A stretch of DNA of 64,000 nucleotides, taken from positions 16,072-80,071 of the forward strand of contig CAZBAF010000004.1 of NCBI GenBank assembly GCA_964490245.1, written 5' to 3'. The notes beneath the pieces are model-generated. The model was given only the letters and a program-made list of their open reading frames with translations. It made no database searches and had not been told where the DNA came from. Positions 2,371 to 64,000 of this stretch are shown here, piece by piece; the stretch's first letter is position 1; every line of letters starts with the position of its first letter. The translations under genes and the position numbers were made by a program. This DNA comes from an uncultured Candidatus Saccharibacteria bacterium. GTDB lineage: Bacteria; Patescibacteriota; Saccharimonadia; Saccharimonadales; JACDBH01.

Positions 2371-3747
2371 TTATGGATTATGGGTGACTCTATCGGCTGA
2401 TTCAACAATACTGAACCAGGTTTGGCCGGGGTTGAGCGCAATGACGTTGCCCTCATTGTCCTTTAGCTGCCATTGTGCGGTACGGCTGGGCTTGCTCCAG
2501 GTGCCTTCAATGACTTTGCCATCCTGAAACACGTACACTTTGCCGCTGCCGGTTGTGCCGTAAATAGTGTGGATACGGTTGGCGTGAATGCTCTTGTTGA
2601 CAATCGGTACAATCACTACGTCCGGCGCCAGCTGTTCGCCGCTTTCGGCATCCAGGTGGGCGGCGCCGCCCTGACTGCGCAGGTAGCGATTGGTGTTTTT
2701 GTCATAGCGGAAGGTGACGTTATAGAGTGCGCTTGAGATACGCAGGTTTACAACACTGGCTGCGGGCAGCTCGGGTTCTGTTGTCGCTTCGGTTGTATCT
2801 TCTACGTCGCCGCTTTCGGTCTCGGCCGGCTCGTCCTCGGTAACAGGCTCTTTGCGCGGCAGACTGGTAAAGGTGCCGTTACTGTAGCCTTTTGCGTTGA
2901 ACAGATCCAGCATCTGCTGTCCGGTTGAGTAAAGATTGTGCGGTGCGTAGCGGTTGGTAACGCGGCGGAATGAACCGCCGTTGACGCCGTGGTCCATATC
3001 CTGCACGCCCATAGTGCGCACGTCATTGAGAGCTTCAGGCGAGCCGCCGGCGTGCACGATCGGCGCGTTATACGGCATAAACCAGTCTATAAAATACGGC
3101 CGCAGACTGCGGATTGGTCCAATATTGGCCGGGACGTTGTCGTGATAGATGGCATTAAAGCGTGTAATGCCGCCCTCAGCGATGGCTTCCATTATAATAT
3201 CGGCTTCGCGCAGACCGGACTGTGGGCGGGCCTCGGGGCTGTTTTCGATCTGGACGGCATAGATCGGCTTATTGTTTTCGCCGATAGGCAGCTGCCGGCC
3301 GCTGACGCGTGAGGCTTCGGTGGTGGGTGCTGGTTTTGGTTCGGGTTCAGGCTCCTGCTGCTGGACGACAGGCGGGGTGGTGTCACGGATGGCAAACCAG
3401 TAGACCGCACCGGCAATAACTCCCAGTAGCACTGCCCCGGCGGCAATGGCGATTATCCATTCTTTTTTATTGCGCGGTTTTCTAAGCGGCAGCTTAAAGC
3501 GCTTTTTTGGCTTTGGCGGCGTTGGAGCCGCCGGCTTATCTGGCCTGGACTCGGGGTTCGGTGCGGGTTTGGGGGGCGGCGGGGCTGCCGTGGTAGGCGT
3601 CTGTACCGGAGCAGCTGCCGGCGCACGGGGCGGAACCGCCTTATGCGCCAGAGTTTGGTCTGGCCTGGCGCGAGGCGTCAGCGGTTGGCCAACAGGTATA
3701 CGGGGTCGCTTTGACGGGCGAACAAAATCATCCATACTTGGAAGCAT
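2371..3747 (-). CDS. DUF3048 (YerB-like) membrane-anchored protein with a Pro-rich linker
   Basis: 458 aa. After a TM helix and a P/A/K-rich stretch it carries the motif AVQIENSPEARPQSGL..ADI..E..AEGGITRF. Confidence 0.65.
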   Translation of the reverse strand: MLPSMDDFVRPSKRPRIPVGQPLTPRARPDQTLAHKAVPPRAPAAAPVQTPTTAAPPPPKPAPNPESRPDKPAAPTPPKPKKRFKLPLRKPRNKKEWIIAIAAGAVLLGVIAGAVYWFAIRDTTPPVVQQQEPEPEPKPAPTTEASRVSGRQLPIGENNKPIYAVQIENSPEARPQSGLREADIIMEAIAEGGITRFNAIYHDNVPANIGPIRSLRPYFIDWFMPYNAPIVHAGGSPEALNDVRTMGVQDMDHGVNGGSFRRVTNRYAPHNLYSTGQQMLDLFNAKGYSNGTFTSLPRKEPVTEDEPAETESGDVEDTTEATTEPELPAASVVNLRISSALYNVTFRYDKNTNRYLRSQGGAAHLDAESGEQLAPDVVIVPIVNKSIHANRIHTIYGTTGSGKVYVFQDGKVIEGTWSKPSRTAQWQLKDNEGNVIALNPGQTWFSIVESADRVTHNP

Positions 3748-7967: not shown

Positions 7968-9437
7968 ATGGATTTTCTAGACCCACGCCGTAAAAAAGCT
8001 CACCGCCGCCGTCTGTTTATAGGCTATATCCTGATGGGTATTGGCATAATTATCGGCACCATTACTTTATTCTATCTGGCGTATGGGTATGACATCGACC
8101 GCAAGACCGGCACGGTGATTCAAAACGGCATTGTCTTTGTCGACTCCAAGCCCGGCGGCGCGGTAATTTATTTGAACGATGTACGGCAAAACAGCCGTAC
8201 CGCTTCGCGAATGGCCCTGCCCGCCGGGGTGTACACTGTACGGCTCGAGGCCGAGGGTTACCGCCACTGGGAGCGAACTTTCAATCTGGAGGGCGGACAG
8301 ATTCAGCGGCTCGTCTATCCGTTCCTGTTGCCAAACGTTTTTGAAACTGACGATATGCATCAGTACGAGTTCCAGCCGCAGCTGACCAGCCAAAGTCCGG
8401 ATCGCCGCTGGGTGTTCGTACAGCAGCCCGGTCAGACCTATCTGTTCGATGTCTTTGATCTGCGCGATGCGCAGAAAGCACCTGTTCAGGTGCTGGTTCC
8501 GCCTGCCATACTGACCGAGCCGGCGGCGGAGGCCAGCCTGAAGTTTGTCGAATGGTCCAATGATAACCGTCATGTCCTGCTGGAGCGTACCTTTGGTGAC
8601 AGAACCGAATATATTATGCTGGACCGCGAAAACCCGGCCCAGTCGGTAAATATTAATACAATGATGGGCATAGAGCCCAGGATGCCCTCGCTGCGCAACA
8701 AGCGTCATGACCAGCTGTATTATTTGGACGCCGTACCGGGCGTGTTGCGGGTAGCTGATTTGTCCAGCCGCACAATTTCGGCACCGCTTGTTTCTTCTGC
8801 TTTGGCTTATAACTCATACGGCGATGATATTGTGCTGTTTGTAACCCAGGAGGGCATGGACGAGGGGCGGGCCGAGTTTCGGGTGCTCGAGGGTGATAAG
8901 GTGTATCCGCTCAAGTCTGTCTCGGCTGCAGATGCCTATGTCCTGGATGTGTCACGCTATAGCAACAAGTGGTACTATGTGGTCGGCAGCGCCGCGGACA
9001 ACATGGCATTTGTCTATGAAAACCCCTTGCCCGCCCTGAAGGCGCAAACCAGAACCCCGCTGATTGTGACTGCGATTTTACGGCTCGAGAACCCGCGTTT
9101 TGTAAGCTTCTCGGCTAACACGCAGTTTATCGCGCTGCAAAGCGGCAATAAGCTGCTGGTGATCGACCTCGAGGACAGCCGTCAGTACCGCACCAGCCTG
9201 ACACACGATATACCGCTGGACAGGCAGCTTAAGTGGATGGACGGCCACCGACTTTTGTTTATGGTTGGCAGCCAATCGTACATTCTTGATTTCGACGGCT
9301 CAAACGAGCAAACCCTGGTGACATCGCTGGTCGATCGGCCGTACTTTGACCGCGATTATGACAACGTGTTTACGCTGGAGCGGTCCAAGCAGGATGGCAG
9401 CCGGTTTGCTTTGACCCGGACGGTGATTGAGGATTAG
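7968..9437 (+). CDS. PEGA domain membrane protein with a C-terminal beta-propeller-like region
   Basis: 489 aa with an N-terminal TM helix and a PEGA-type motif (VDSKPGGAVIYLND...YTVRLEAEGY). Confidence 0.65.
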   Translation: MDFLDPRRKKAHRRRLFIGYILMGIGIIIGTITLFYLAYGYDIDRKTGTVIQNGIVFVDSKPGGAVIYLNDVRQNSRTASRMALPAGVYTVRLEAEGYRHWERTFNLEGGQIQRLVYPFLLPNVFETDDMHQYEFQPQLTSQSPDRRWVFVQQPGQTYLFDVFDLRDAQKAPVQVLVPPAILTEPAAEASLKFVEWSNDNRHVLLERTFGDRTEYIMLDRENPAQSVNINTMMGIEPRMPSLRNKRHDQLYYLDAVPGVLRVADLSSRTISAPLVSSALAYNSYGDDIVLFVTQEGMDEGRAEFRVLEGDKVYPLKSVSAADAYVLDVSRYSNKWYYVVGSAADNMAFVYENPLPALKAQTRTPLIVTAILRLENPRFVSFSANTQFIALQSGNKLLVIDLEDSRQYRTSLTHDIPLDRQLKWMDGHRLLFMVGSQSYILDFDGSNEQTLVTSLVDRPYFDRDYDNVFTLERSKQDGSRFALTRTVIED

Positions 9438-20681: not shown

Positions 20682-21299
20682 ATGCCCGCAAAGAATACCG
20701 TACGCGCGTTTGAGACAGGGGGATATTATCATGTCTACAACAGGGGTGCCGGCAAGCGGATTGTGTTTCATGACGACTACGACAAGGCATATTTTTTAGG
20801 CATCATTGCGCGATACCTCGACCCAAAAGTTCATGATTATGACGGTAATGGAGCGGAATATCCCAAATACGATACAGACATAGAGCTCCTCGCTTATTGC
20901 CTAATGGGCAATCACATCCACTTATTGTTCTACATAAAGCAAAGCCCGAATGCGCTATCCATGTTAGTAAAGTCCATAATGGTCAGTTACACGATGTATT
21001 TTAACTTAAAGTACAAGGAATCCGGTACGCTTTTTCAGGGTAAATATCGTGCGTCACGAATTACTCGTGATGACTACCTTCAGCACATTAGTCGCTACAT
21101 ACACCTAAATCCAAGGAACTATGCGACCTACCAGTTTTCGAGCTTTCAGGCGTACACCGGTGGCGCAGTTCCCCGCTGGTTGAATCCTCAAAGACTCCTG
21201 GCGCTTTTTAATACAAATGAGTACAAAGCATTTGTCGCTGATTACGAGGGGCATAAAGAGGCTCTTGAGTCGATACGCTCTGAGTTAGCCGACAGATAA
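20682..21299 (+). CDS. IS200-like / REP-associated tyrosine transposase (RAYT, Y1 HUH family)
   Basis: 205 aa with YHVYNRG, the HUH motif YCLMGNHIHLL, and SRYIHLNP carrying the catalytic Tyr region. Confidence 0.8.
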   Translation: MPAKNTVRAFETGGYYHVYNRGAGKRIVFHDDYDKAYFLGIIARYLDPKVHDYDGNGAEYPKYDTDIELLAYCLMGNHIHLLFYIKQSPNALSMLVKSIMVSYTMYFNLKYKESGTLFQGKYRASRITRDDYLQHISRYIHLNPRNYATYQFSSFQAYTGGAVPRWLNPQRLLALFNTNEYKAFVADYEGHKEALESIRSELADR

Positions 21300-50970: not shown

Positions 50971-52626
50971 ATGCAGACATTCATTGATAACCTGCGCGCC
51001 GCAGGCTTTGACGGTGGGATTGATGATACCCCTGCCTCTAAGGACTTTTATAGTCACGACGCGTCATTGTTTGAAATCCGTCCGCAGCTGATCGTACATC
51101 CAAAGGACAGTTCGGATGTGCAGGCGCTGGTGCGTACGGTAAATAAACTCAAATCAAAGGATAAAACGCTTAGTATTACAGCGCGCAGTGCGGGTACCGA
51201 TATGTCCGGCGGTGCTATCAATGATTCGATTATTGCGGATTTTACCAAGCATTTTGATAAGGTGCTCAGTGTCAGCGCCACGGCCGCACGCAGCCAACCG
51301 GGTGTTTATTACCGTGATTTTGAAAAGAAAACGTTGCGCCACGGCGCGCTTTTGCCCCCCTACCCCGCCTCGCGTGATCTGTGCACTATCGGCGGCATGG
51401 TCAATAACAACTCGGGCGGCGAAAAATCTTTGCAGTACGGCAAGACCGACAATTTTGTGACCGAGCTGAAGGTAGTGCTGTCGGATGGCAATGAGTACGT
51501 GGTGCGGCCGCTTAACCGCAAAGAGCTGGACGCCAAAATGAAACAGAAAAACTTTGAAGGCGATCTGTACCGCCGCACCTACGAACTGCTCGAGAATAAC
51601 TACGAAGTGCTGCAGGCGGCGCGGCCGAAAGTAGCCAAAGATTCGACCGGTTATCATCTGTGGGATGTCTGGAACCGCGAAACAGGCGTGTTTGATCTGA
51701 CCAAGCTGTTTGTGGGCGCACAGGGTACGCTTGGTTTGACGACCGAGATGAAGTTCCGCCTGGTCAAGGCGCCCAAGCACAGCGGGACGCTGGTTATCTT
51801 TTTGCGTGATCTGGATCAGCTTGGCAGGATGATTAATAAGGTGCTGCGGCATAATCCGGCGGCTTTTGAGGGCTTTGACAACTATACGCTCATGCTGAGC
51901 TTCAGGCTGTTCCTGTCGTTTCATAAGCTGATTGGCTGGGAGGAAACCATCAAGCTGGCGCTGCAGCTGTTTCCGAATGCGCTGATGCTGTTCCGCGGCA
52001 TACCAAAGATGGTGCTTTTGGTTGAGTTTAACGGTCAGACGCCGGACGAGGTGGCGCAGCGGATTAATGATCTAAGGATGGATCTGGAGGAGTTTAAGCA
52101 CAGCTCGCTGTTCGAAGAGAATGAGACCGAAGCCAAATCACGCAAGTTCTGGATTATGCGCCGGGCCAGCTTTAAGCTGCTGCGCGAAAAGGTTAAAGAC
52201 AAGCACACGGCACCTTATATTGATGACCTGGTGGTTAATCCGGAGCATTTGCCCAAGTTTTTGCCTGAGCTGCGTAAAATACTTAAAAAATACAAGCTGC
52301 TGGCCACTATTGCCGGACATATGGGCGAGGGCAACTTCCATATCATTCCGCTGATGAAACTCGAAGAGAAAAAAGAACGTGCCAAGCTTGAGCCCAGTAT
52401 GCGTGAGGTTAATCGGCTTATCCTGAAGTACGGCGGCAGTCTGAGCGGTGAGCACAACGACGGACTGGTGCGCGGCCCGTGGCTCGAGGAAATGTACGGC
52501 AAAAAAGTCGTATCACTGTTCCGCCGGGTAAAGAAAATTTATGATCCGGAAGGTATTTTTAACCCGCGCAAAAAAGCTGACGCTACCTGGGAGTACAGTT
52601 TCAAGCACGTGCGTGATCATTTTTAA
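50971..52626 (+). CDS. FAD-binding oxidoreductase (FAD-linked oxidase, GlcD/D-lactate dehydrogenase-like)
   Basis: 551 aa with an FAD_binding_4 N-terminus (ARSAGTDMSGGA) and a C-terminal oxidase domain. Confidence 0.8.
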   Translation: MQTFIDNLRAAGFDGGIDDTPASKDFYSHDASLFEIRPQLIVHPKDSSDVQALVRTVNKLKSKDKTLSITARSAGTDMSGGAINDSIIADFTKHFDKVLSVSATAARSQPGVYYRDFEKKTLRHGALLPPYPASRDLCTIGGMVNNNSGGEKSLQYGKTDNFVTELKVVLSDGNEYVVRPLNRKELDAKMKQKNFEGDLYRRTYELLENNYEVLQAARPKVAKDSTGYHLWDVWNRETGVFDLTKLFVGAQGTLGLTTEMKFRLVKAPKHSGTLVIFLRDLDQLGRMINKVLRHNPAAFEGFDNYTLMLSFRLFLSFHKLIGWEETIKLALQLFPNALMLFRGIPKMVLLVEFNGQTPDEVAQRINDLRMDLEEFKHSSLFEENETEAKSRKFWIMRRASFKLLREKVKDKHTAPYIDDLVVNPEHLPKFLPELRKILKKYKLLATIAGHMGEGNFHIIPLMKLEEKKERAKLEPSMREVNRLILKYGGSLSGEHNDGLVRGPWLEEMYGKKVVSLFRRVKKIYDPEGIFNPRKKADATWEYSFKHVRDHF

Positions 52627-52728
52627 CTGGCGTTGCCTTTTTGAGAGGGGAGCATCCCCTCTCAACGCGCGGGGCGCGGGCAAAAGCCCGCCGCTCCGGC
52701 TTCTCTCCCCTGCCCAGGAGAGTAGGGC

Positions 52729-52758
52729 TTGACAAAAGCATAAGAAGTATGCTATAAT
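52729..52758 (+). promoter_or_regulatory. Orphan consensus promoter (TTGACA-N18-TATAAT)
   Basis: Exact hexamers. No ORF lies downstream before the terminator at 52781. Confidence 0.45.
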
Positions 52759-52780
52759 GAGAAGACAGGGTAATAAAATA

Positions 52781-52808
52781 GCGCCACGAGATAAGTGGCG
52801 CTTTTTTT
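52781..52808. terminator. Rho-independent terminator (bidirectional)
   Basis: GCGCCAC-GAGATAA-GTGGCGC followed by TTTTTTT. It also serves the convergent gene 52824..53084. Confidence 0.7.
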
Positions 52809-52823
52809 ACTAAACCAAGACCC

Positions 52824-53084
52824 CTACTTGTCGGCTTCTTGTAGTGCCAAGCGGCGGCGGGCGGTTTCGTTCAGGACGCTGACAATACCAAAGAATGCAA
52901 TACCGGTCAGGCAGGTGCGGATAATGCTTGCGTGGCTGAAAACGATCAGCAGTATGCCCGATGTCAGTGTGCCGGCGGCAAGCCCGTAGCTTGCTTTAAG
53001 CCTGTCGGCCTGGGGCTTAAAGTTATTAAAAGCCGACAGTGCCAATGCGCTGAGGGCAAGAATTACGTGGATAAGTATAAGCAT
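52824..53084 (-). CDS. Small membrane protein (hypothetical)
   Basis: 86 aa with three hydrophobic helices. Confidence 0.5.
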   Translation of the reverse strand: MLILIHVILALSALALSAFNNFKPQADRLKASYGLAAGTLTSGILLIVFSHASIIRTCLTGIAFFGIVSVLNETARRRLALQEADK

Positions 53085-53161
53085 GATTTCAGTATAGTCC
53101 TAAAGCGGTTCGGGCGCAACCTAAATGGCCGATTGCGGGCCGGAAGCGGCTGGCGGTAATC

Positions 53162-54022
53162 TTACGGCAGCCACGGATTGACTGAAATAGTCAGGCAGAA
53201 CAGTACCAGTACAGCCAGCGAGTAGTGAAAGTTACGACGGGCCCACTGCTCTTTATTATGCGCCAGAAACCCTTCGGCAGCCAATTGCAGCCAGCGCAGG
53301 CTGAGTACTAACATCAGCACCCAATACGTCCAGCTGGTGAGCGGGCTGACAGCCAGGCCCAGCAGACACGCGACGGTGAGAATGGTGTAAATAAAAATGT
53401 GTCGAATAGTTGCCGGTATGCCGCGCTTGACCGAACTGACCGGGATACCGGCTTTGGCGTACTCTGCTTTACGGAAAACAGCAATGCTGTAAAATTCGGG
53501 CATCTGCCAGAAGAAAATAACGCCGAACAGTATAATCCCTGTCCAGTCGGGATTGTTGGTTGCTGCCACATAGCCGGCCAGGATGGGCGCGGCACCGCTG
53601 ATGGCCCCCACCAGTGTGCCATGAACGCTGAGCCGCTTGCTCAAAGCGCCGTAAAGCCAGACATACACCATCCAGCCAAACAGCCCGACGGCGACCACCC
53701 ACCAGTTGGTGAACAGCGCCAGCAGCACGGTGCCGATGATGCCCAGTGCAGCGCCAAAAATAACTGCCTGCCGGCCGGTGACCTCGCCGGTCAGAAGCGG
53801 TCGTCCCTGGGTACGGGTCATGAGCGCATCAATATCCTGGTCAAGAAAATTATTAATGACGCACGCGCTGGCAATCACAAACCAGGTACCGACCGTGAGC
53901 GCCGCAAGCACTGTCCAGTCTATGCGGCCGTTGGCTGCAAACAGGTAGCCGGCAATTGTGGTAATAAGGTTGCCGTAGGTGACACCGGGCTTGGTCAGCC
54001 GATAGAGCGCCCCGAAATTCAT
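53162..54022 (-). CDS. cyoE: Heme O synthase (protoheme IX farnesyltransferase)
   Basis: 286 aa of the UbiA family with N..D.DID..M.RT..RPL. Confidence 0.85.
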   Translation of the reverse strand: MNFGALYRLTKPGVTYGNLITTIAGYLFAANGRIDWTVLAALTVGTWFVIASACVINNFLDQDIDALMTRTQGRPLLTGEVTGRQAVIFGAALGIIGTVLLALFTNWWVVAVGLFGWMVYVWLYGALSKRLSVHGTLVGAISGAAPILAGYVAATNNPDWTGIILFGVIFFWQMPEFYSIAVFRKAEYAKAGIPVSSVKRGIPATIRHIFIYTILTVACLLGLAVSPLTSWTYWVLMLVLSLRWLQLAAEGFLAHNKEQWARRNFHYSLAVLVLFCLTISVNPWLP

Positions 54023-54129
54023 ATCCTTAGTCTAGCACGTGTGTTTTACTGCTCCTTGAAAAGTGCTTATTTTGCTTAAGCTTGGTGTGGTATAGTGGGT
54101 GTAAATACTTAATAGCTCGAAGAGGGTTA

Positions 54130-55053
54130 ATGGCAAAACAGCAAAAAAAACAGCATAAGTCCGCATGGCTTGCTGTATTTGGGCTGGCAGGTACCGGACT
54201 TTTTATAGCCGTACTGGCATGGTTTATGCGCGGCCGCGATATTGCCCTGCTTAACCCCAAAGGGTTTATTGCCAACGAGCAGTACAAGCTGCTGGTGATA
54301 TCGACCGCTATTATGGTTGCATTTGCTGCAGTGGTTATCTTTTTTATATATTTCTTTGCCTGGCGATACCGCGAGACAGCTCAACAGACGGCGGTGGATC
54401 AGCAGGCCGGACGCAACAAAAAGCTGCTGACGACCGCCTGGGCCTCCCCGATCGTCATCTTTTTTATACTTGCTGCGCTGATGTTGCCCGCCACTCAAAA
54501 GCTGGTGCCGAACAAGCCTATAGAGGCCAGTAACGGCCATCTGACTATTCAGGTGGTTGCGCTTAGGTGGAAGTGGCTGTTTATCTATCCCGAGCAAAAG
54601 ATAGCAACCGTCAACTTTGTTCAAATCCCGGTTGATACTCCGGTCAGGTTTGATCTGACCGCAGACGAGGCGCCGATGAATTCGTTCTGGGTGCCCCACC
54701 TTGCCGGTATGCTGTATGCCATGACAGGGCACGTTAATCCACTGCACGTGATGGCTGATACGACCGGCGATTTTGACGGCGGTGCGGCAGAGATCAACGG
54801 CGGCGGCTTTGCGGACATGAGGTTTACGGCCCGCGTTTCGACCAAGAGCGAGTTTGACTCGTGGGTTGATCAGATAAAATATTCGGCCGGCCGGCTCGAC
54901 GCCCAGGAATACGACAAGCTGCTGGAGCCAACCAAGGAACACCCCGTGACCGCTTATTCACACGCCGGACCGGAAATTTTTAATACCATTCTGAGCAAAT
55001 ATCCCGAATCGCACACCGGCAGCGGGCATAATCATACAGGAGGGGGATACTAA
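54130..55053 (+). CDS. cyoA: Cytochrome ubiquinol oxidase subunit II
   Basis: The ORF runs from 54082, but the Met at 54130 follows AGAGGG. It has two TM helices and a cupredoxin domain that lacks the CuA Cys/His set, with FWVP.L.G. Confidence 0.85.
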   Translation: MAKQQKKQHKSAWLAVFGLAGTGLFIAVLAWFMRGRDIALLNPKGFIANEQYKLLVISTAIMVAFAAVVIFFIYFFAWRYRETAQQTAVDQQAGRNKKLLTTAWASPIVIFFILAALMLPATQKLVPNKPIEASNGHLTIQVVALRWKWLFIYPEQKIATVNFVQIPVDTPVRFDLTADEAPMNSFWVPHLAGMLYAMTGHVNPLHVMADTTGDFDGGAAEINGGGFADMRFTARVSTKSEFDSWVDQIKYSAGRLDAQEYDKLLEPTKEHPVTAYSHAGPEIFNTILSKYPESHTGSGHNHTGGGY

Positions 55054-57128
55054 TGAGAGAGTTTCTGCTCGGCCGACTGGACGCCAGCGCCTTGCCGCAC
55101 GAGTGGCATACCATTGCCGGTTCCATATCCTTTATTCTGATGGGTCTGGCGCTGGTGGGCTTTATTACCTACAAAAAGCGCTGGAAGTGGCTGTGGAATG
55201 AGTGGCTGACATCTGTTGACCCCAAGAAAATCGGTATTATGTACTTTATTGTCGGCGGCGCTATGCTGCTGCGCGGCGGTCTGGACGCTGTCATGCTGTG
55301 GCTGCAGCAGGCGCTGGCTGCCGATGGCTCCGGCGGCTATCTGTCGGCTCAGCACTTCCAGGAGATCTTTACTGCCCACGGCAATATCATGGTGTTCTTT
55401 GTGGCTATGGCGCTTATTTTTGGATTTATTAATTACATTGTTCCGCTGCAGATTGGCGCGCGTGATCTGGCGTCACCGTTCTTGAACACCTTGGGCTTCT
55501 GGCTGTATGTGGCCGGCGTGGTGATGATCAATATGTTCTTCTTCTTGGGCGGTGAGTATGCGGCCACTGGCTGGCTGGCGGTTGCCCCTTTGTCCGGGCC
55601 GGAATTCAGTCCCGGCGTGGGCATGGATTACTGGGTATGGAGCCTGCAGATATCCGGTATCGGTACAACGCTGGGCGGTATTAACTTCATTATGACTATC
55701 TTAAAAATGCGCGCTAAAGGCATGACGCTATGGAAGATGCCTCTCTTTACCTGGGGCAGCCTGTGCAGCATGCTGATGGTGGTGACGGTCTTTCCGCTGC
55801 TGACAATGACTATCTTTCTGCTGTTCTTTGACCGCTACCTGGGTACGCACTTCTTTACGACCACCGGCGGCGGCAATCCCATGATGTACACCAACCTGAT
55901 ATGGATGTGGGGTCACCCCGAGGTGTATATTATTATGCTGCCATCGTTCGGTATTTTCTCGGAGGTGGTATCGACGTTCAGCCGCAAGCCCGTGGCTTTT
56001 TATAAGACTGCAGTTGTCGGTATTATTAGCGTGGCCAGCATCTCTTTGGTGGTGTGGCTGCATCACTTCTTTACCATGGGCGCCGGCGCCAATGTCAACT
56101 CGGCCTTTGGTATCGCCACCATGCTGATCGGCATACCGACAACCGTGCTGATGTTTAACTGGATCGCAACGATGTACAAGGGCCGCATACGCTTTACGAC
56201 GCCGATGCTGTGGTTTTTGGCATTTGTTTTTGTATTTGCAATCGGGGGTATCACCGGTATCCTGCTGGCTATTCCGCCGGTTGATTTCCAGCTGCATAAC
56301 AGTCTGTTCCTGGTGGCGCATTTCCACTCTACGGCTGTGGGCGGTGTGCTGTTCGGTATTTTTGCGGGCCTTACCTATTGGTTCCCCAAGATGACCGGTG
56401 TGCGCTTGAACGAGCGCATTGGCCGCTACTCGGTTATCGCCTGGGTGGTCGGCTTCTTTGTGTCCTTTACTCCGCTCTATATCCTGGGCCTGATGGGCGC
56501 AACCAGGAGGCTCGACCGCTACAGCAATCCGGACTGGCAGCCTTTCTTTGTCATGGCGCTGATTGGCAGTCTTATTATCTGTTTAGGCGTCGCGCTGCAG
56601 ATTATACAGATTATTGCCAGCTACATGCAAAAGCGTCATTTGGCCGATACAACCGGCGATCCGTGGGATGGCCGCAATCTGGAGTGGTCGACTGCATCGC
56701 CGCCGCCAAGCTATAACTTTGCGGTTATTCCAAAGGTAAAATCCCTTGATGCATACTGGAATATGAAAAAGGCCGGCCTGCAAAAGCCTGAATATGAGGA
56801 CGTGCACATGCCCAAGAATACGGCGACCGGTATTTACATCTCGATCTTTGCCTTCCTGGCTGGCTTTGGTTTTGTCTGGGAGATGAACTGGCTTGCGGCT
56901 GTCTCGATTATTGGCGCCATTGTGGTGCTGGTGATGCGAATGTTTGACGAGCATACCGAATACACCATCCCAGCTCAAGAGGTGAAGAAAATGGAAGAAG
57001 ACCGTATGGCCCGCGATAAGGCGATAGAAAGCAAACGGGATCCCGATGAAGAAGATATGGGTCTGATCGAATTTATACAAACAGTGCTTAGATGGGCACT
57101 TGGTCTCGTCAGGAGGAATAAGCGATGA
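55053..57128 (+). CDS. cyoB: Cytochrome o ubiquinol oxidase subunit I
   Basis: 691 aa of the heme-copper oxidase family with WFFGHPEVYI-like WMWGHPEVYI and HHFF. Confidence 0.95.
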   Translation: MREFLLGRLDASALPHEWHTIAGSISFILMGLALVGFITYKKRWKWLWNEWLTSVDPKKIGIMYFIVGGAMLLRGGLDAVMLWLQQALAADGSGGYLSAQHFQEIFTAHGNIMVFFVAMALIFGFINYIVPLQIGARDLASPFLNTLGFWLYVAGVVMINMFFFLGGEYAATGWLAVAPLSGPEFSPGVGMDYWVWSLQISGIGTTLGGINFIMTILKMRAKGMTLWKMPLFTWGSLCSMLMVVTVFPLLTMTIFLLFFDRYLGTHFFTTTGGGNPMMYTNLIWMWGHPEVYIIMLPSFGIFSEVVSTFSRKPVAFYKTAVVGIISVASISLVVWLHHFFTMGAGANVNSAFGIATMLIGIPTTVLMFNWIATMYKGRIRFTTPMLWFLAFVFVFAIGGITGILLAIPPVDFQLHNSLFLVAHFHSTAVGGVLFGIFAGLTYWFPKMTGVRLNERIGRYSVIAWVVGFFVSFTPLYILGLMGATRRLDRYSNPDWQPFFVMALIGSLIICLGVALQIIQIIASYMQKRHLADTTGDPWDGRNLEWSTASPPPSYNFAVIPKVKSLDAYWNMKKAGLQKPEYEDVHMPKNTATGIYISIFAFLAGFGFVWEMNWLAAVSIIGAIVVLVMRMFDEHTEYTIPAQEVKKMEEDRMARDKAIESKRDPDEEDMGLIEFIQTVLRWALGLVRRNKR

Positions 57129-57727
57129 GTTCTGAAACCCATACGGTGTCAAAGAAAAAGCACGAAGAAGCAATGACCGACCGCATCATATTCGGTTTTT
57201 GGGTTTACCTGATGACCGACTTGCTAATGTTTGCGGTGCTGTTCGCCGTTTTTGCGGTGCTTCGGAACAACACGGTTGGCGGCGCACCGGGCAGCGAGCT
57301 GTTCAGCCTGCCGTTGGCATTAACCGGCACTCTGTTGCTGCTGACCAGCAGCTTTACAGCCGGTATCGGCATGATGTTTGCCCGCAGCGGGCTTAAGAAA
57401 CAGACGCTTATCTGGTTTGGCGTTACGTTCCTGCTGGGCCTGGCCTTCCTGGGTGTGGAGTTGTTCGAATTCTACGAGCTGGCCCATGAGGGTTATACTT
57501 TGACGCTCAATGCCTTTATGTCGTCATTCTTTATTCTGGTCGGTACACACGGGGTGCACATTGCGTCTGGTTTGATTTGGCTGGCGATTTTGATGGTTTA
57601 TGTGGCAAAACGCGGGCTTACTTATTCCAATGTGCGTAAGCTCTCGCTGCTGAGCCTGTTCTGGCACTTCCTTGATCTTGTCTGGATATTTATCTTCACC
57701 GTGGTGTATCTGGGGGCATTTGTATGA
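57125..57727 (+). CDS. cyoC: Cytochrome o ubiquinol oxidase subunit III
   Basis: 200 aa with five TM helices and the FWHFLD.VWI motif. Confidence 0.9.
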   Translation: MSSETHTVSKKKHEEAMTDRIIFGFWVYLMTDLLMFAVLFAVFAVLRNNTVGGAPGSELFSLPLALTGTLLLLTSSFTAGIGMMFARSGLKKQTLIWFGVTFLLGLAFLGVELFEFYELAHEGYTLTLNAFMSSFFILVGTHGVHIASGLIWLAILMVYVAKRGLTYSNVRKLSLLSLFWHFLDLVWIFIFTVVYLGAFV

Positions 57728-58407
57728 GCGAAAAAGTACATCAGTCAAAAAACAGCGAACACGGCACCATACTGTCTTATGCAACCGGCTTTGCCTTGTC
57801 GCTTTTGTTGACGTTTATTCCGTACTATCTTGTTGTTAATAAGGTCTTTTCCGGCAAAGGACTATGGCTGGCAATTTTGACGATTGGTGTTCTGCAAATG
57901 AGCGTACAGTTGCTGTTCTTCCTGCATCTGGGCCGCGGCCCTAAGCCGCTTTACAACATCGTCTTCTTTTTTGCGACAGCCGGCGTGATTATTATTACCA
58001 TAGGTGCCTCCCTGTTTATTATGGATAATCTCTACCGCACCATGTCGCCGCAGGAGATGACCCAGAAACTGGCTCAGCAGGAAGGCATAGCCCAGGTGGG
58101 CGGCAAGGAGACCGGCGCCTGCGGCCAGCTGCGGGACAACCATGTGGTGACTATCGCCAACGATACTGTTTATCCGATCCGGACCGAGGCAAAATTGTGC
58201 GATACGCTGACGTTCGTGAATAAGGATGGGGATGACCGGGACCTGCTGTTTGCTTCATACTTTGGCCCCGAAAGCTACGGCGGCGAGGATAAGGTCCATG
58301 TGCGCAGCGGCCGCCCCGAGGTGATTACGCTCAATCAGGAGGGTGACTTCAGCTACTTTGATGAGCGCAATCCCGATATTACCGGCTACTTTATTGTCTC
58401 CAGATAA
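57724..58407 (+). CDS. cyoD: Cytochrome o ubiquinol oxidase subunit IV fused to an extra ~100-aa C-terminal beta-rich domain
   Basis: The N-terminal ~115 aa match CyoD (three TM helices, Y..GF.LS..LT.IP...V). The remaining ~110 aa are soluble, and 227 aa is twice the usual length. Confidence 0.7.
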   Translation: MSEKVHQSKNSEHGTILSYATGFALSLLLTFIPYYLVVNKVFSGKGLWLAILTIGVLQMSVQLLFFLHLGRGPKPLYNIVFFFATAGVIIITIGASLFIMDNLYRTMSPQEMTQKLAQQEGIAQVGGKETGACGQLRDNHVVTIANDTVYPIRTEAKLCDTLTFVNKDGDDRDLLFASYFGPESYGGEDKVHVRSGRPEVITLNQEGDFSYFDERNPDITGYFIVSR

Positions 58408-58531: not shown

Positions 58532-59242
58532 ATGAAAGCCCGGTACGCACTTACCTTACTGAAAGTTTTGCTCTGTGTAACTTTTTTGATTGTAGTTACA
58601 CATCTGGCGCTTAAGTACATTAGCGTGCAGGTATATAACGAAAAGCACGGTTTTATCTTTGAGTTGTCCAACCGGTTTGATCTGAATGATGAAGCCAGTG
58701 TGCCGCAGTGGTTCAGCCAGGCGCTGTTTCTGGCTATTGCCGGCTTGTCGCTTGTAGCGGCATGGGGCGCAGCGAATAAAAAAGGCTATCGTTTGTGGCT
58801 GGCGATTGCGGTTATTGCACTGATTATGTCTATTGATGATGTGGCAACTTTGCATGAGTTTGTGCTGCAATCTTTGCATAACACTTTCTTTTTGGACACC
58901 GATCCGACACTTATAGAGAATGCCTGGTTGCTGCTTTTGCCGTTTATTCTGGCGGGGGCTTTATGGTTGTTTGTCGTGATGCTGCGGACGCTGCCGCGGG
59001 ACACGATGGCGCTGCTTGTGGCTGGAGGCGTTATCTTTATCTTTGGCGCTGTTGTGGTGGATTCATTTGCCAACACCGTGCCCAGCCGTGATTTTATGAA
59101 CCAGGGCGTGCTGGGTGCGCTGGAAGGCGGCTTGCAGCTGCTCGGTTCGGTTACGGTGCTGTTTGCGATTGCCCGCCATCTTGAGCTGAATCATGCCAGC
59201 CGGATCAGGGCTGCCTACCGCCAGCTGCGGCCTGCACGCTAA
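58532..59242 (+). CDS. Multi-pass membrane protein (hypothetical)
   Basis: 236 aa with about 6 TM segments. Confidence 0.55.
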   Translation: MKARYALTLLKVLLCVTFLIVVTHLALKYISVQVYNEKHGFIFELSNRFDLNDEASVPQWFSQALFLAIAGLSLVAAWGAANKKGYRLWLAIAVIALIMSIDDVATLHEFVLQSLHNTFFLDTDPTLIENAWLLLLPFILAGALWLFVVMLRTLPRDTMALLVAGGVIFIFGAVVVDSFANTVPSRDFMNQGVLGALEGGLQLLGSVTVLFAIARHLELNHASRIRAAYRQLRPAR

Positions 59243-60005: not shown

Positions 60006-60119
60006 GTTCTGCGACTTTCTTAGGGTTTTGCCTCCCTTCCGCCTCGCCTGGCGGACAACTTACGATGGTGCAAGCGGTTGAAGTTGACGATTCGCTATTG
60101 TCTCCATAGAATAAAGATA

Positions 60120-62021
60120 ATGTTCCGGTTAAGTTTACTAGACAGGGCAAAAAAGAGCCGGCGTCATTCGATCAATCGGAGTGCGGAGCATACGAAAAAA
60201 CTTCTGTTCATCGCCTCCTTTGCTGTTGTGGGTGCCTGGCTGCTTTTTTCTGTACGCGCGGCAGATGTGCAGCCGCCAGTTCCGTCCGATCGCCCTTTTG
60301 TACGTCTGTTTACTGAGGTCAATCACCCGACGGTTATCAGGAACGCAAACAATGCAGCCAGCATTAATCAGCTCAAGCAATGGTACGTACATGTTCATGC
60401 CGAGGGCAGCAACACCTTCCCGCTTGGCGATGCTTCGCGCACCAGCGGTTCTGATACGACGTTTGCCTATAAAGCGGCTCAGGCCGGGTTATGGACATCA
60501 AATTACCGCAACGGATCATATGTCTCTCAGGCAAATTCGGACCAGGTGAACTTTGGTGAAGCAGCCAGCATAGAACAAAATGCGCCGCTTGCTATTGGCA
60601 CCTGGTGGCCGGGTAACTTTGCCCCTTACGTTAACGGTAACAACAATGCAGCTATAGCACGCCTGACCGCTAATATTACTTCTTCGGCTACGACAGTGAA
60701 CGTAACCAGTGCGGCCAGCGTCAAGCCTGCGTCAAACCTGCCTAATACCTGGCCGTATATACGCTCCACCAACACCGGCACCTATTCAAAAAGTACGGCG
60801 GATTATGTCTCCTGGATACGGATCAATAATGAGATCATGCGTATCACCGGTACGCCAACCGAAAGCAACGGTGTGGTCAGTATTCCGGTACAGCGGGGCT
60901 ACTTTGGCACCACGCCGGCGGCTCATGCCTCCAATACACGCGTGCAATCACCTACCTATATCGGCAGTACGCAAGCAGTTATTTCCGACCAGACGCTTGC
61001 CGGCTCGCCCAATGTAAACAGCGCAAACAAAGCCTTAAGATACAGTATTAAAATCTGGCAGCCCGACGGCTATAAGTGGATTGCGCAGCGCATTAAGGAC
61101 ACTTTCGGCACATCATCCTTTCTTGGCGGACACAATACCGTCTGGCTGGATGTCTCAAGTTGTAACCAATACAACAACTCATCAAGCTCGGGGCACATGG
61201 TCTGGAATTGGAATGAAGCCACCAATCAAAAAATACTGCGTGACGAATGGGGCCAGCATCAAAAGACAAAGCTGGCAGGACTCCGAAGTGAGCTCCCGGG
61301 TATTAAATTTACCGGCAATAACCTCGGTAGTAACTTTAATCCCTGCACTGACGAGCTGCTTGGCAATGCTTACGACGGCGGCGTTTTTGAGCATTGGATG
61401 AAAACCGACCCCGTATGGAGCTTGGACTGGAATGGCTCAATGCAGCAGAATTTTGACGTGCAGAAAAACAACTGGCCCGGAATATACTGGGTCCGATGGA
61501 ATTATGATTTTTATGCCGCCAACGGCGGCCCGACGGCTGCGCAAATAGATGCCTATAAGCGTTTTAGTTACGGTTCGCTATTGCTGGCGTATCGCACGAC
61601 CGCAGACCGCTATCAATATGGCGGGTTGTGGGAACTTAGCAAGCCTGACGAACTGTATTTCTGGGACTGGGGCGCGCCGGTCAATCCGACTCCGAACGGG
61701 CTGGCAGATGTCTCGGCGGGCAGCGGTGGCCTGTACAAGCGCGACTTTGCGAACGGTATGGTTATCGTTAACCCCGGCACGCAATCGGTGACGTACAATC
61801 TGGGCGGCACATATTTTGATGTCACGCGAAAAAACAGCTCGAATCAACCTATTGCGGTGCAGTCGGTCACGATTGGCCCTAAGGATGCAGCTTTTGTCAT
61901 GAAGGGCGTATCGGATGCTCCAAACCTTAGCCTTGAAGCTGAGCATGGTATGCAGAATGGTTCGGTAACGACCATTAATGACCCGAATGCCTCACAGGGC
62001 AAAGCCGTTCGCTTTGATTAG
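60120..62021 (+). CDS. Secreted hypothetical protein (possible glycan-active; CBM-like C-terminal tail)
   Basis: The ORF runs from a TTG at 60078, with an ATG at 60120. It has a signal anchor (LLFIASFAVVGAWLLF). Any family assignment is tentative. Confidence 0.5.
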   Translation: MFRLSLLDRAKKSRRHSINRSAEHTKKLLFIASFAVVGAWLLFSVRAADVQPPVPSDRPFVRLFTEVNHPTVIRNANNAASINQLKQWYVHVHAEGSNTFPLGDASRTSGSDTTFAYKAAQAGLWTSNYRNGSYVSQANSDQVNFGEAASIEQNAPLAIGTWWPGNFAPYVNGNNNAAIARLTANITSSATTVNVTSAASVKPASNLPNTWPYIRSTNTGTYSKSTADYVSWIRINNEIMRITGTPTESNGVVSIPVQRGYFGTTPAAHASNTRVQSPTYIGSTQAVISDQTLAGSPNVNSANKALRYSIKIWQPDGYKWIAQRIKDTFGTSSFLGGHNTVWLDVSSCNQYNNSSSSGHMVWNWNEATNQKILRDEWGQHQKTKLAGLRSELPGIKFTGNNLGSNFNPCTDELLGNAYDGGVFEHWMKTDPVWSLDWNGSMQQNFDVQKNNWPGIYWVRWNYDFYAANGGPTAAQIDAYKRFSYGSLLLAYRTTADRYQYGGLWELSKPDELYFWDWGAPVNPTPNGLADVSAGSGGLYKRDFANGMVIVNPGTQSVTYNLGGTYFDVTRKNSSNQPIAVQSVTIGPKDAAFVMKGVSDAPNLSLEAEHGMQNGSVTTINDPNASQGKAVRFD

Positions 62022-62199: not shown

Positions 62200-62550
62200 A
62201 TGACCAGTCACCGAATTTATGCCATGAGTTTTGCAAAGGTATATCCCCTGTACGTGGCCAAAGCCGAGAGAAAGGGCCGCACAAAAGCCGAGGTTGACGC
62301 AATAATCCGCTGGCTGACAGGTTACACGCAGGCGGGTTTGGAGGCAGAAATTCAGAAAGAAACAGACTTTGAGACTTTCTTTGCCCATGCTCCGGACCTC
62401 AATCCGGCGCGCAAGCAGATAACCGGCGTGATCTGCGGCATCAGGGTGGAAGACATCAAAGAACCGCTGATGCAGGAAATACGCTATCTTGATAAGCTGA
62501 TCGACGAGCTGGCCCGCGGCAAGGCGATGGAAAAGATCCTCCGGAAATAA
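62200..62550 (+). CDS. DUF2200 domain protein
   Basis: Conserved [35 protein letters not shown]. The ORF extends upstream to 62080, but the family starts near Met41. Confidence 0.75.
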
Positions 62551-62721: not shown

Positions 62722-62764
62722 CGACAAGAATTAGAAAACCGCCATCCTTTCAGATGACGGTTTC
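62722..62764 (-). terminator. Rho-independent terminator
   Basis: The minus strand reads GAAACCGTCATC-TGAAAG-GATGGCGGTTTTC followed by TAATTCTT. One G-T pair is valid only on the minus strand. Confidence 0.6.
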
Positions 62765-62785: not shown

Positions 62786-62818
62786 TGGCTGGGGTTATGT
62801 GACATACTTCGCAACTTT
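62786..62818. repeat. 33-bp perfect direct repeat, copy 1
   Basis: TGGCTGGGGTTATGTGACATACTTCGCAACTTT, identical to 63202-63234. It abuts the stop of the gene 62817..63155. Confidence 0.85.
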
Positions 62819-63155
62819 AGCGAACAATTTCAGACTCAAACCATTGTTCTTGAAAATTAGTTAACTCTCTAATTTTTTCGTCGTCAAATTCTTTTCCGTC
62901 TTCACAAACAATTAGCTTGTCATCATTGTCGTTTAGTCGATGTATTATGGCTATGCACCTACCCTCAAAAGTTTTGAGAGGCTCATCAGGACCAAGCACA
63001 TAAGCATCAAGCTCCTCTCCGTCAGGCGCCTCAGTGCCAGGAATAAATCCGTAGTTAACAGGATATTCAAATCCATGCTTTGGATGAGTGGACCCAAGAG
63101 GCCTGTCCATTTGCACGCTAACCATCTCACCTAAATATGGACTACTGTATTTCAT
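62817..63155 (-). CDS. Short inorganic pyrophosphatase-family protein
   Basis: 112 aa with YPVNYGFIPGT...DGEELDAYVLG. AT-rich codon usage. A TATGAT box 6 nt upstream of the ATG suggests a leaderless mRNA. Confidence 0.55.
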   Translation of the reverse strand: MKYSSPYLGEMVSVQMDRPLGSTHPKHGFEYPVNYGFIPGTEAPDGEELDAYVLGPDEPLKTFEGRCIAIIHRLNDNDDKLIVCEDGKEFDDEKIRELTNFQEQWFESEIVR

Positions 63156-63159
63156 GAAC

Positions 63160-63196
63160 TAATCATAAAACAAAAAAGCACTAATCCATAGTGCTT
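63160..63196 (-). terminator. Rho-independent terminator
   Basis: The minus strand reads AAGCACTA-TGGAT-TAGTGCTT followed by TTTTTGTTTTATG. Confidence 0.6.
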
Positions 63197-63201
63197 ATGC
63201 T

Positions 63202-63234
63202 TGGCTGGGGTTATGTGACATACTTCGCAACTTT
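63202..63234. repeat. 33-bp perfect direct repeat, copy 2
   Basis: Identical to 62786-62818. It abuts the stop of the GT2 gene. Confidence 0.85.
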
Positions 63235-63237
63235 GTT

Positions 63238-64000
63238 CTAGGCAGAAGCTCCACTTCTTTGCCATACAGTCCATTCTGTACGCTTTCTTCGGATTAATCT
63301 ATAGATTGATTTTAATAAAGCAATAAACTCTATAAACTCTATAAATACCAACATTATAGGCATTAGAAAAACCCAAAGATTTTTCTTACTATGTTTTTCT
63401 CTCATATCACCCAATAGTAAGAGAGCGAAGGGGACTATTGAGTATGCCAGTATTAAAGCTGGGATATTTGCACTAATAAACACTAGATATCCTAAAGTTA
63501 GAATAATTACGGGGAACAATAACACTTCCAGCAAGCCAAACAATTGAAGTGGCAAGTCGATTAGTGTCAAGTATCGTCCCTTCCTAAAGGAAAATAGAAA
63601 GTCTTTGTGAAATCTTAAGCACTCCAAATAACCGTGCCTCCATCGTGTTCTTTGATTCAAGAGACCTTTAACGCTTGACGCGCCTTCAGTAATACATACA
63701 GCATCGTCAACGTATGCAATTTTATGGCCAGCCATTTTGATTCTCATGGATATGTCTAAATCCTCGGTACTACTGTAGTCAGTAAACTCACCTGTTTTCC
63801 TCAAAACACTGGATCTAAACATAGTTAATGCTCCTGGGAAAATATATGCAGAATCAAAAATATGTTGGGCACGCTTAACATGGAAACCTACTGTGTATTC
63901 GAAATGCTGGGCATAACCTAACCAATTTTTTGTATTTCCCACTATAACTTCACCTATCGCTACGCTGAACCTCTTATCAGATAAAGCGTCTACCATTTTA
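63238..64000 (-). CDS. Glycosyltransferase family 2 (processive, QRxRW type), C-terminal part; continues beyond the window
   Basis: Contains SEDLD-like STEDLD and the QRTRWRHG motif, followed by C-terminal TM helices. AT-rich. Confidence 0.75.
   Translation of the reverse strand, partial: KMVDALSDKRFSVAIGEVIVGNTKNWLGYAQHFEYTVGFHVKRAQHIFDSAYIFPGALTMFRSSVLRKTGEFTDYSSTEDLDISMRIKMAGHKIAYVDDAVCITEGASSVKGLLNQRTRWRHGYLECLRFHKDFLFSFRKGRYLTLIDLPLQLFGLLEVLLFPVIILTLGYLVFISANIPALILAYSIVPFALLLLGDMREKHSKKNLWVFLMPIMLVFIEFIEFIALLKSIYRLIRRKRTEWTVWQRSGASA

Follow-up and report, generated by a model that had tools for sequence, protein, structure and literature searches.

Two identical repeats at the AT-rich end of the window

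From ~62.6–62.7 kb to its end, the window (the whole stretch of 64,000 nt that was analysed) falls in GC content from ~0.53 to 0.36–0.42 (~0.38), in agreement with the AT-rich tail that the initial annotation had described from ~62.8 kb. This tail carries two genes on the minus strand. One encodes a GT2 glycosyltransferase (63238–63996; PF13632 and PF13641) and runs past the window, which holds its C-terminal 252 aa; it is a 100% match to the 359-aa protein P0121, which is encoded on the 80,758-nt source contig. The other is a 112-aa ORF of the inorganic pyrophosphatase family, hereafter ppa (62817–63155; PF00719, 40.8 bits). Convergent with them lies a DUF2200 gene (62200–62550, plus strand; PF09966, 180 bits), the first gene of the normal-GC flank. 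Two further ORFs inside that flank, at 60078–62021 (plus strand, 647 aa) and 58532–59242 (plus strand, 236 aa, membrane-like), have no Pfam match.

Both minus-strand genes end at the same 33-nt sequence, TGGCTGGGGTTATGTGACATACTTCGCAACTTT, which is present exactly twice in the window (62786–62818 and 63202–63234, 416 bp from start to start). The perfect direct repeat reported initially and its placement at the two stop codons were thereby confirmed. Because both window genes lie on the minus strand, we read the element on the gene strand as AAAGTTGCGAAGTATGTCACATAACCCCAGCCA, and we refer to the family to which it belongs, described below, as E33. The proximal copy (63202–63234, minus strand) begins 3 nt past the TAG of the GT2 gene. 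The distal copy (62786–62818, minus strand), to which the proximal one is identical, overlaps the TAA of ppa by 2 nt and scores 30.6 bits (E 7.7e-8) against the family model. We found no third copy of the repeat in the window at up to 3 mismatches (chance expectation 0), and no third E33 copy at up to 9 mismatches or with the nhmmer model. The repeat is exactly 33 nt long with unrelated flanks on either side, and because these flanks share nothing outside the 33 nt, the pair is not a tandem duplication. The terminators that had been proposed behind each repeat were recovered on the minus strand as terminator-like T-run hairpins at 63196–63176 and 62764–62735; the second of these (62735–62764) lies 21 nt past the distal E33, in the normal-GC flank, and faces the convergent DUF2200 gene.

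The 416 bp that reach from the edge of the proximal repeat through the distal one (62786–63201, minus strand) can be read as a cassette unit. It opens with the motif AGCATAAGC (63193–63201), which abuts the ...CCA of the proximal E33 and is a frequent unit start in the family, and continues with a terminator-like hairpin (AAGCACTA-TGGAT-TAGTGCTT and then a T run; 63176–63196), a −10-like hexamer TATGAT (63162–63167), the ppa ORF and the distal E33, all on the minus strand. The hexamer, 6 nt upstream of the ppa ATG, was recognised by reading the sequence and was left uncalled by a consensus promoter scan. Its spacing to the ATG suggests a leaderless ppa transcript. This reading, already made in the initial annotation, gains comparative support because a TAnnAT box exactly 6 nt before the ATG persists in five ppa loci (the window, L001, L002, L034 and L037). 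With a terminator at its opening and a promoter-like box of its own, the ppa cassette looks self-contained. Residues 30–85 of its ORF match pyrophosphatases in the PDB (E 6e-6), and more than 5000 homologs of 110–120 aa are annotated as inorganic diphosphatase; we regard the product as a putative pyrophosphatase-like protein. Short proteins of this type align only to the central part (~residues 45–120) of family I pyrophosphatases, which are 170–200 aa long.

Among the ppa homologs whose DNA could be retrieved, P0001 (95% aa identity; Logan contig L001) is the nearest. The window and L001 have a sole common block of 428 nt at 91.8% identity (L001 26–451), which runs from the closing 5 nt of the proximal repeat (AGCCA, followed directly by AGCATAAGC) via the terminator, which is kept with the unit in L001, and ppa to the distal repeat, with homology stopping at the element boundaries. 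Different genes surround the unit, among them Fic in L001 and DUF2200 in the window, and its GC content of 0.40 in the window and 0.39 in L001 compares with a host GC of 0.53 in the window and 0.45 in the rest of L001. Because it is found in these two different genomic backgrounds, the ppa unit is a discrete block. A homolog in L037 (78% aa identity) has a degenerate E33 on both flanks. The earlier claim of a single-gene cassette bounded by the site was thus supported, with the unit between the repeats recurring as a discrete block in L001 and L037 and the flanks not homologous. L002 shows a weak, unconfirmed resemblance to E33 after the ppa stop, and the homolog in L003 (69%) has no E33-like element. 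Upstream of the unit, L001 (positions 1–30) reads ...GGCGAGCCA directly before AGCATAAGC, with only AGCCA in common with E33 or tRNA-Gln. The contig ends 30 nt beyond this junction, which may represent either a secondary site of insertion or a variable junction at which the assembly broke off. Look-ups with the products of ppa, P0002, P0121, the PAP2 protein and DUF2200 also returned a 1.3-kb Logan contig identical to the window. The strain of the window is also present in the read set SRR7082966.

GT2 may itself be a cassette, the one that precedes ppa, or it may belong to the chromosome or an island and bear an E33 site. Its homolog in L014 (1–17191, GCA_035317825.1; 72% identity) stands in the same GT2...DUF2200 frame as in the window, filled with other genes in L014, and no E33 was found in L014, including after the GT2 homolog. 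Within the lineage, the stretch between GT2 and DUF2200 is a variable one. Because the L014 frame lies in a T4SS-bearing region and is without E33, the low-GC tail of the window may be the edge of a larger region of that kind. The order in L014 is T4SS genes (VirB4/TraG/TrbL/TrbC-like), GT2, an acetyltransferase, a DNA methylase with an NgoBV-type restriction enzyme, HTH, YCII, an 860-aa ORF and DUF2200; GC is 0.41–0.45 up to ~13.2 kb and 0.52 beyond.

The E33 family, its arrays and the tRNA-Gln anchor

Further copies of the repeat, on which the initial annotation had made the cassette idea depend, were found by the dozen in cassette-like arrays of other Saccharibacteria. With such copies elsewhere and flanks unrelated beyond 33 bp, the repeat is not the duplicated 3' UTR that had been considered as the alternative. 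Read on the gene strand, the family consensus is AAAGTTGCGAAGTACGTCCACTAGCCCCAGCCA. When one genome per GTDB species was scanned with a degenerate pattern, seven loci were obtained, all in Candidatus Saccharibacteria or Saccharimonadales, and a scan of JGI metagenomes with the degenerate pattern gave 17 contigs with E33; the element was found in independent assemblies from NCBI, JGI and Logan. The exact 33-mer had no match in the genome and viral collections, and viral contigs and plasmids contained no E33 even with relaxed queries. So far, the family appears to be known only from Saccharibacteria. The loci were ascertained by sampling with a near-consensus pattern and rescanned with mismatches and an nhmmer model, and because of this sampling the frequency and taxonomic range of E33 are lower bounds.

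E33 arrays contain 2–5 copies per locus, in a single orientation within each locus and at intervals of 306–1170 bp (one of 2557 bp), and each copy lies −2 to +54 nt past the stop codon of an ORF in the same orientation. The conserved part is box-like, with a mean column identity of 91% over 33 nt and unconserved DNA on both sides. A terminator-like hairpin was present within 75 nt downstream of 15/39 copies, compared to 2/39 upstream, and AGCATAAGC(AC) stands directly 3' of about one third of the copies. About six copies have no abutting AGCATAAGC but show the reverse complement of the unit start, GCTTATGCTTG, 4–5 nt after the ...CCA (for example L008 2600–2615, L022 560–575 and 922–935, L033 and L017). 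Most arrays are AT-richer than their own flanks. Both window copies differ from the family consensus at the same five central positions, which are private substitutions, and the L001 copy of the ppa cassette carries a different E33 variant from the window pair. This combination is not predicted by a simple cassette model. Homogenisation of E33 within a locus or genome was considered and is unsupported overall in the pooled data.

We found no significant secondary structure in the element. As DNA, neither strand folded better than shuffles, whether the downstream motif was included or not (z −0.4 to +1.2), and neither E33 nor E33 plus AGCATAAGC showed dyad symmetry. The internal TATG/CATA palindrome noted earlier is real in the window copies; it is not kept in the family, where 47% of cells pair, as in shuffles. 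A hairpin had also been considered from an apparent compensatory change of T-A to C-G between the window and L001, and was rejected as the commonest variant cannot pair. RYYYAAC/GTTRRRY cores are absent from the consensus and from all 27 variants, in which GTTGCGA and TCGCAAC break the purine/pyrimidine pattern. At 33 nt, with no hairpin and no R''/R' cores, E33 is therefore not a classical attC, as the initial annotation had judged. The window tail and 11 array loci had no Rfam match.

Several other classes were tried for E33 and set aside. A coding sequence, considered from codon-like variation (WLGLxDVLRNF or KVAKYVx*), was ruled out, as conservation does not extend into the flanks and the window copies lie right at stop codons. 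A single-copy dif-like site was dropped after the arrays appeared and no dyad symmetry was found. REP/BIME elements are short palindromes of which many copies, in both orientations, are scattered among intergenic regions; E33 is not palindromic, and its 2 copies in 64 kb are adjacent and co-oriented. CRISPR repeats are 28–37 nt long and separated by similar-sized non-coding spacers; E33 intervals measure 306–2557 bp and hold ORFs, and the one CRISPR-DR match was at chance level and elsewhere.

The arrays are anchored at a tRNA gene. Among 26 loci searched with ARAGORN, 10/10 tRNAs were tRNA-Gln, at eight independent loci in which the array begins immediately behind this gene, and Rfam agrees. 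The tRNA-Gln lies on the same strand as the elements, 0.5–1.8 kb upstream of the first E33. Its 3' end reads ...CCCTCACCCCCAGCCA, and the last 9 nt, CCCCAGCCA, are identical to the tail of E33. Genuine tRNA-Gln 3' fragments of 19–22 nt terminate other array units in L011, L032 and L021. Furthermore, AGCATAAGC also abuts tRNA-Gln or its fragments in L007, L032 and L021, the partner in L007 being the tRNA itself. In L032 the same ORF-less unit of ~200 nt is found after the CCA of the tRNA and after the CCA of an E33; the two copies are identical over their first ~70 nt and divergent beyond, and their homology begins exactly at the ...CCA junction and ends just past the next ...CCCCAGCCA AGCATAAGCAyTTT.

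Two other roles for the tRNA were rejected. The first 24 nt of E33 are no closer to the tRNA than shuffles, so that the element is not a degenerate tRNA-Gln fragment. The tRNA-Gln promoter as a common driver of the cassettes is unlikely because tRNA-Gln often has its own terminator directly after it, as is seen behind several of these genes. Inverted tRNA-like T-arm/acceptor fragments (...GGGATTCGAAC...) occur just past the terminator at array ends or right after tRNA-Gln (L019 ~8990–9060, L020 ~440–505, L024/L029, L032 ~850–900 and ~1535–1590, L011 ~3510–3560), and neither ARAGORN nor Rfam called a tRNA in them. The window has no tRNA-Gln, and the head of its array would fall beyond base 64000. 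Window positions 50971–58407 hold a FAD-linked oxidase, UbiA (minus strand) and a cyoABCD-like operon, with no tRNA-Gln there; in the MAG locus L007, tRNA-Gln and an array of five elements come immediately after homologous FAD-oxidase and UbiA genes, and a cyoD-like gene stands at the opposite end.

We extracted 40 cargo ORFs, and ppa alone was common to more than one locus. Domains in the cargo include HAD hydrolase, TauE exporter, Nramp, PRK/uridine kinase, Fic, APH-type kinase, HD, PQ-loop, BrkB and a PD40 protein, and many cargo ORFs are without any family. The genes that flank the arrays are ordinary and different per locus; those beside the array heads include UbiA, PfkB, CorA, a hydrolase, a P-type ATPase and others. 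A recombinase in the vicinity, whose absence the initial annotation had listed among the signs against a cassette, was found at no array, as the ~60 ORFs in or beside arrays included no tyrosine, serine or HUH recombinase. The ~50 units and their neighbours also contained no integrase, excisionase or phage-like remnant. Among 10 selected window ORFs there was no recombinase, and the sole transposase-like match was a Y1_Tnp protein. It is a 205-aa ORF at 20682–21296 (plus strand) with a Y1_Tnp domain (IS200-like HUH transposase, RAYT-like; 37 bits), 42 kb from the repeats. Near the arrays we saw no Y1 gene.

Proposed cassette insertion and alternative explanations

Like other CPR bacteria, Saccharibacteria live as episymbionts and have minimal genomes (~1 Mb in Saccharibacteria), and to our knowledge the gain and swapping of accessory functions in CPR bacteria are poorly understood. 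We propose that the repeats are junction sites of non-autonomous gene cassettes, inserted at ...CAGCCA by a trans-acting site-specific recombinase, and we put the probability of this reading at roughly 0.6. With the same confidence, we regard it as an integron-like way of collecting accessory genes that is not an integron. The family, the box-like conservation over 33 nt, the arrays and their polarity, the tRNA-Gln anchor, the shared 9-nt tail, the breaks exactly at ...CCA and the diverse cargo are established. From these we infer site-specific recombination with a crossover in or next to CAGCCA, a recombinase acting in trans and circular intermediates. Taken together with the interchangeable tRNA fragments and the low GC of the units, these observations find their simplest account in the insertion of circular cassettes.

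On this proposal, E33 would be the attachment site that cassettes carry in a system shared by the lineage. Circular cassettes would be inserted immediately 3' of ...CCCCAGCCA by a recombinase whose gene lies elsewhere in the genome, the target being the tRNA-Gln 3' end as the primary site, or the tail of a resident E33 or tRNA-Gln fragment. Each insertion would add a fresh ...CAGCCA tail, and because every insertion supplies a new one, co-oriented arrays would grow. In the window, the ppa cassette (62786–63201) would have entered the E33 site behind GT2, and therefore two repeats would now be seen. This 416-bp cassette, made up of a 5' terminator, a leaderless-type promoter, ppa and the 33-nt site, would form the distal end of a Saccharibacteria cassette array; directly beyond its distal repeat come chromosomal DNA of normal GC and the convergent DUF2200 gene. 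The circle junction is predicted to join E33 to the AGCATAAGC of the same unit (a 416-bp circle), and the empty site to read GT2-E33-TTAATTGACTAGG. Several observations speak against the cassette reading: no recombinase was found among the ORFs scanned, E33 has no dyad or hairpin, the window has no tRNA-Gln, the GT2 homolog of L014 is without E33, neither a circle junction nor an empty site was seen, and the two window copies have five private substitutions in common, with another variant on the L001 cassette. Most recombinase core sites show dyad symmetry or a hairpin.

The tRNA-Gln anchor might instead point to larger integrase-carrying elements, whose scars at tRNA-Gln would make up the arrays through island accretion of the kind seen in tycheposons, the "cassettes" being decayed cargo and E33 the arm-proximal part of the attP of one element family. 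The arrays do start at tRNA-Gln and hold true partial tRNA-Gln repeats, the low-GC stretch in the window extends through GT2, the L014 homolog of GT2 lies in a low-GC T4SS region, and tycheposons show stacked integrations and scattered partial tRNAs (10.1101/2020.12.28.424599). We nevertheless consider this account unlikely, as integrase, excisionase and phage-like remnants are missing from the ~50 units and their neighbours, the units measure 0.3–1.2 kb and mostly hold one intact ORF abutting E33, and the 416-bp ppa block moves as a unit; E33 is also near-identical across species, which argues for ongoing use and not for decay. An RNA-level role, in which E33 would be a 3'-UTR signal for processing, stability or protein binding and the arrays would arise from homologous recombination at 33-nt anchors after DNA uptake, is in our judgement similarly unlikely. 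Although it would suit an element that is always on the sense strand, no more than 54 nt from a stop and before a terminator (15/39 copies against 2/39 upstream), with a tail that mimics the tRNA-Gln 3' end and no recombinase nearby, E33 has no stable or conserved structure and no Rfam match, and 33 nt is a marginal length for RecA-mediated exchange. It also leaves unexplained the clustering at tRNA-Gln, the interchangeable tRNA-Gln 3' fragments and the homology that starts exactly after ...CCA.

We give very little credence to a classical integron or CALIN in which E33 would be an unusual attC used by an IntI-type integrase. The site is 33 nt long, hairpin-free in both strands at the z-scores given above and without RYYYAAC/GTTRRRY cores, no tyrosine recombinase lies next to any array head, and the ppa unit has its own terminator and promoter-like box, whereas the co-oriented ORF-plus-site units and the diverse, mostly unknown cargo are what such an integron would show. 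Practically no weight can be given to a local tandem duplication of a 3' UTR, to chance or to an assembly artefact. The 33/33 identity of the window copies and their five private substitutions in common would be expected from it, but the flanks are unrelated on both sides, 0 copies are expected by chance, the element occurs in independent NCBI, JGI and Logan assemblies, and the distribution of the family refutes it.

Going beyond the cassette reading, we entertain, with somewhat less than even confidence, the broader idea that Saccharibacteria have an integron-analogous system of their own. It would combine a non-IntI recombinase acting in trans, docking at the tRNA-Gln 3' end, an unstructured 33-nt duplex site and self-expressed single-gene cassettes (transport, nucleotide/phosphate metabolism, Fic, kinases) that circulate between species, the window ppa unit among them. 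If true, integron-style gene capture would have more than one evolutionary origin, here with a tRNA gene serving as platform, and E33 would be a simple sequence tag for tracing, in metagenomes, the mobile gene pool of an uncultured phylum. Such a system would also point to a recombinase with a compact 33-bp target, possibly a useful tool, and would explain assembly breaks at such loci.

Comparison with known gene-collecting systems

In open-access papers and preprints we found no prior description of E33, or of cassette arrays in Saccharibacteria or CPR. IS200/IS605 elements need subterminal hairpins at both ends. Oriented insertion 3' of a short target without target duplication, as by their HUH (Y1) transposases, would give co-oriented stacks like the E33 arrays; unlike these elements, E33 is hairpin-free, no Y1 gene was seen near the arrays and the Y1 gene of the window is far from the repeats. 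Sites of the dif type are 28 bp long, with two partly palindromic 11-bp arms and a 6-bp centre, and pdif modules have inverted sites. Xer modules (IMEX, Acinetobacter pdif) resemble E33 units: both are small, lack a recombinase of their own, have short conserved sites at their boundaries and presumably depend for movement on a host enzyme in trans. In contrast to them, E33 is without dyad symmetry, all its copies are direct, and it is anchored at a tRNA gene and not at dif.

The tycheposons of Prochlorococcus have a tRNA-gene hotspot, niche-type cargo and direct repeats in which the tRNA 3' end is contained; their insertions are stacked, newer ones displacing older ones outward (10.1101/2020.12.28.424599). 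E33 arrays are like these and other tRNA-targeting elements in their tRNA hotspot, stacking and niche-type cargo, and in part in their direct repeats with the tRNA 3' end. Unlike tycheposons, E33 units measure 0.3–1.2 kb and have no integrase or replication module, and E33 shares just 9 nt with the tRNA and has a conserved non-tRNA arm of 24 nt. The direct repeat of the tRNA 3' end is represented by the true 19–22-nt fragments in L011, L032 and L021 and, in E33, only by the last 9 nt; the window has no tRNA-Gln.

A close parallel in layout is offered by integrons. An attC is an imperfect inverted repeat of 57–141 nt that forms a single-stranded hairpin and carries R''-L''/L'-R' boxes, and a CALIN is a cluster of attC sites without an integrase. 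As in integrons (sedentary chromosomal ones and CALINs), E33 loci are co-oriented arrays of ORF plus site, with small units that mostly hold one ORF, a conserved end site and a fixed array head, and with highly diverse, mostly uncharacterised cargo of which single cassettes are common to unrelated genomes. The head of an integron array holds the intI tyrosine recombinase with attI and Pc (PMC6856922); the head of an E33 array is the tRNA-Gln 3' end and not attI, with no adjacent intI or Pc. Further differences are the site itself, which has 33 nt, is unstructured and lacks attC cores, and the terminator and promoter-like box carried by at least the ppa cassette. Site-specific gene-cassette arrays as such are already known; what would be new here is the type of site, the platform (tRNA-Gln) and the host phylum. 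In its formal logic, the insertion proposed for E33 would correspond to that of attI and attC in integrons.
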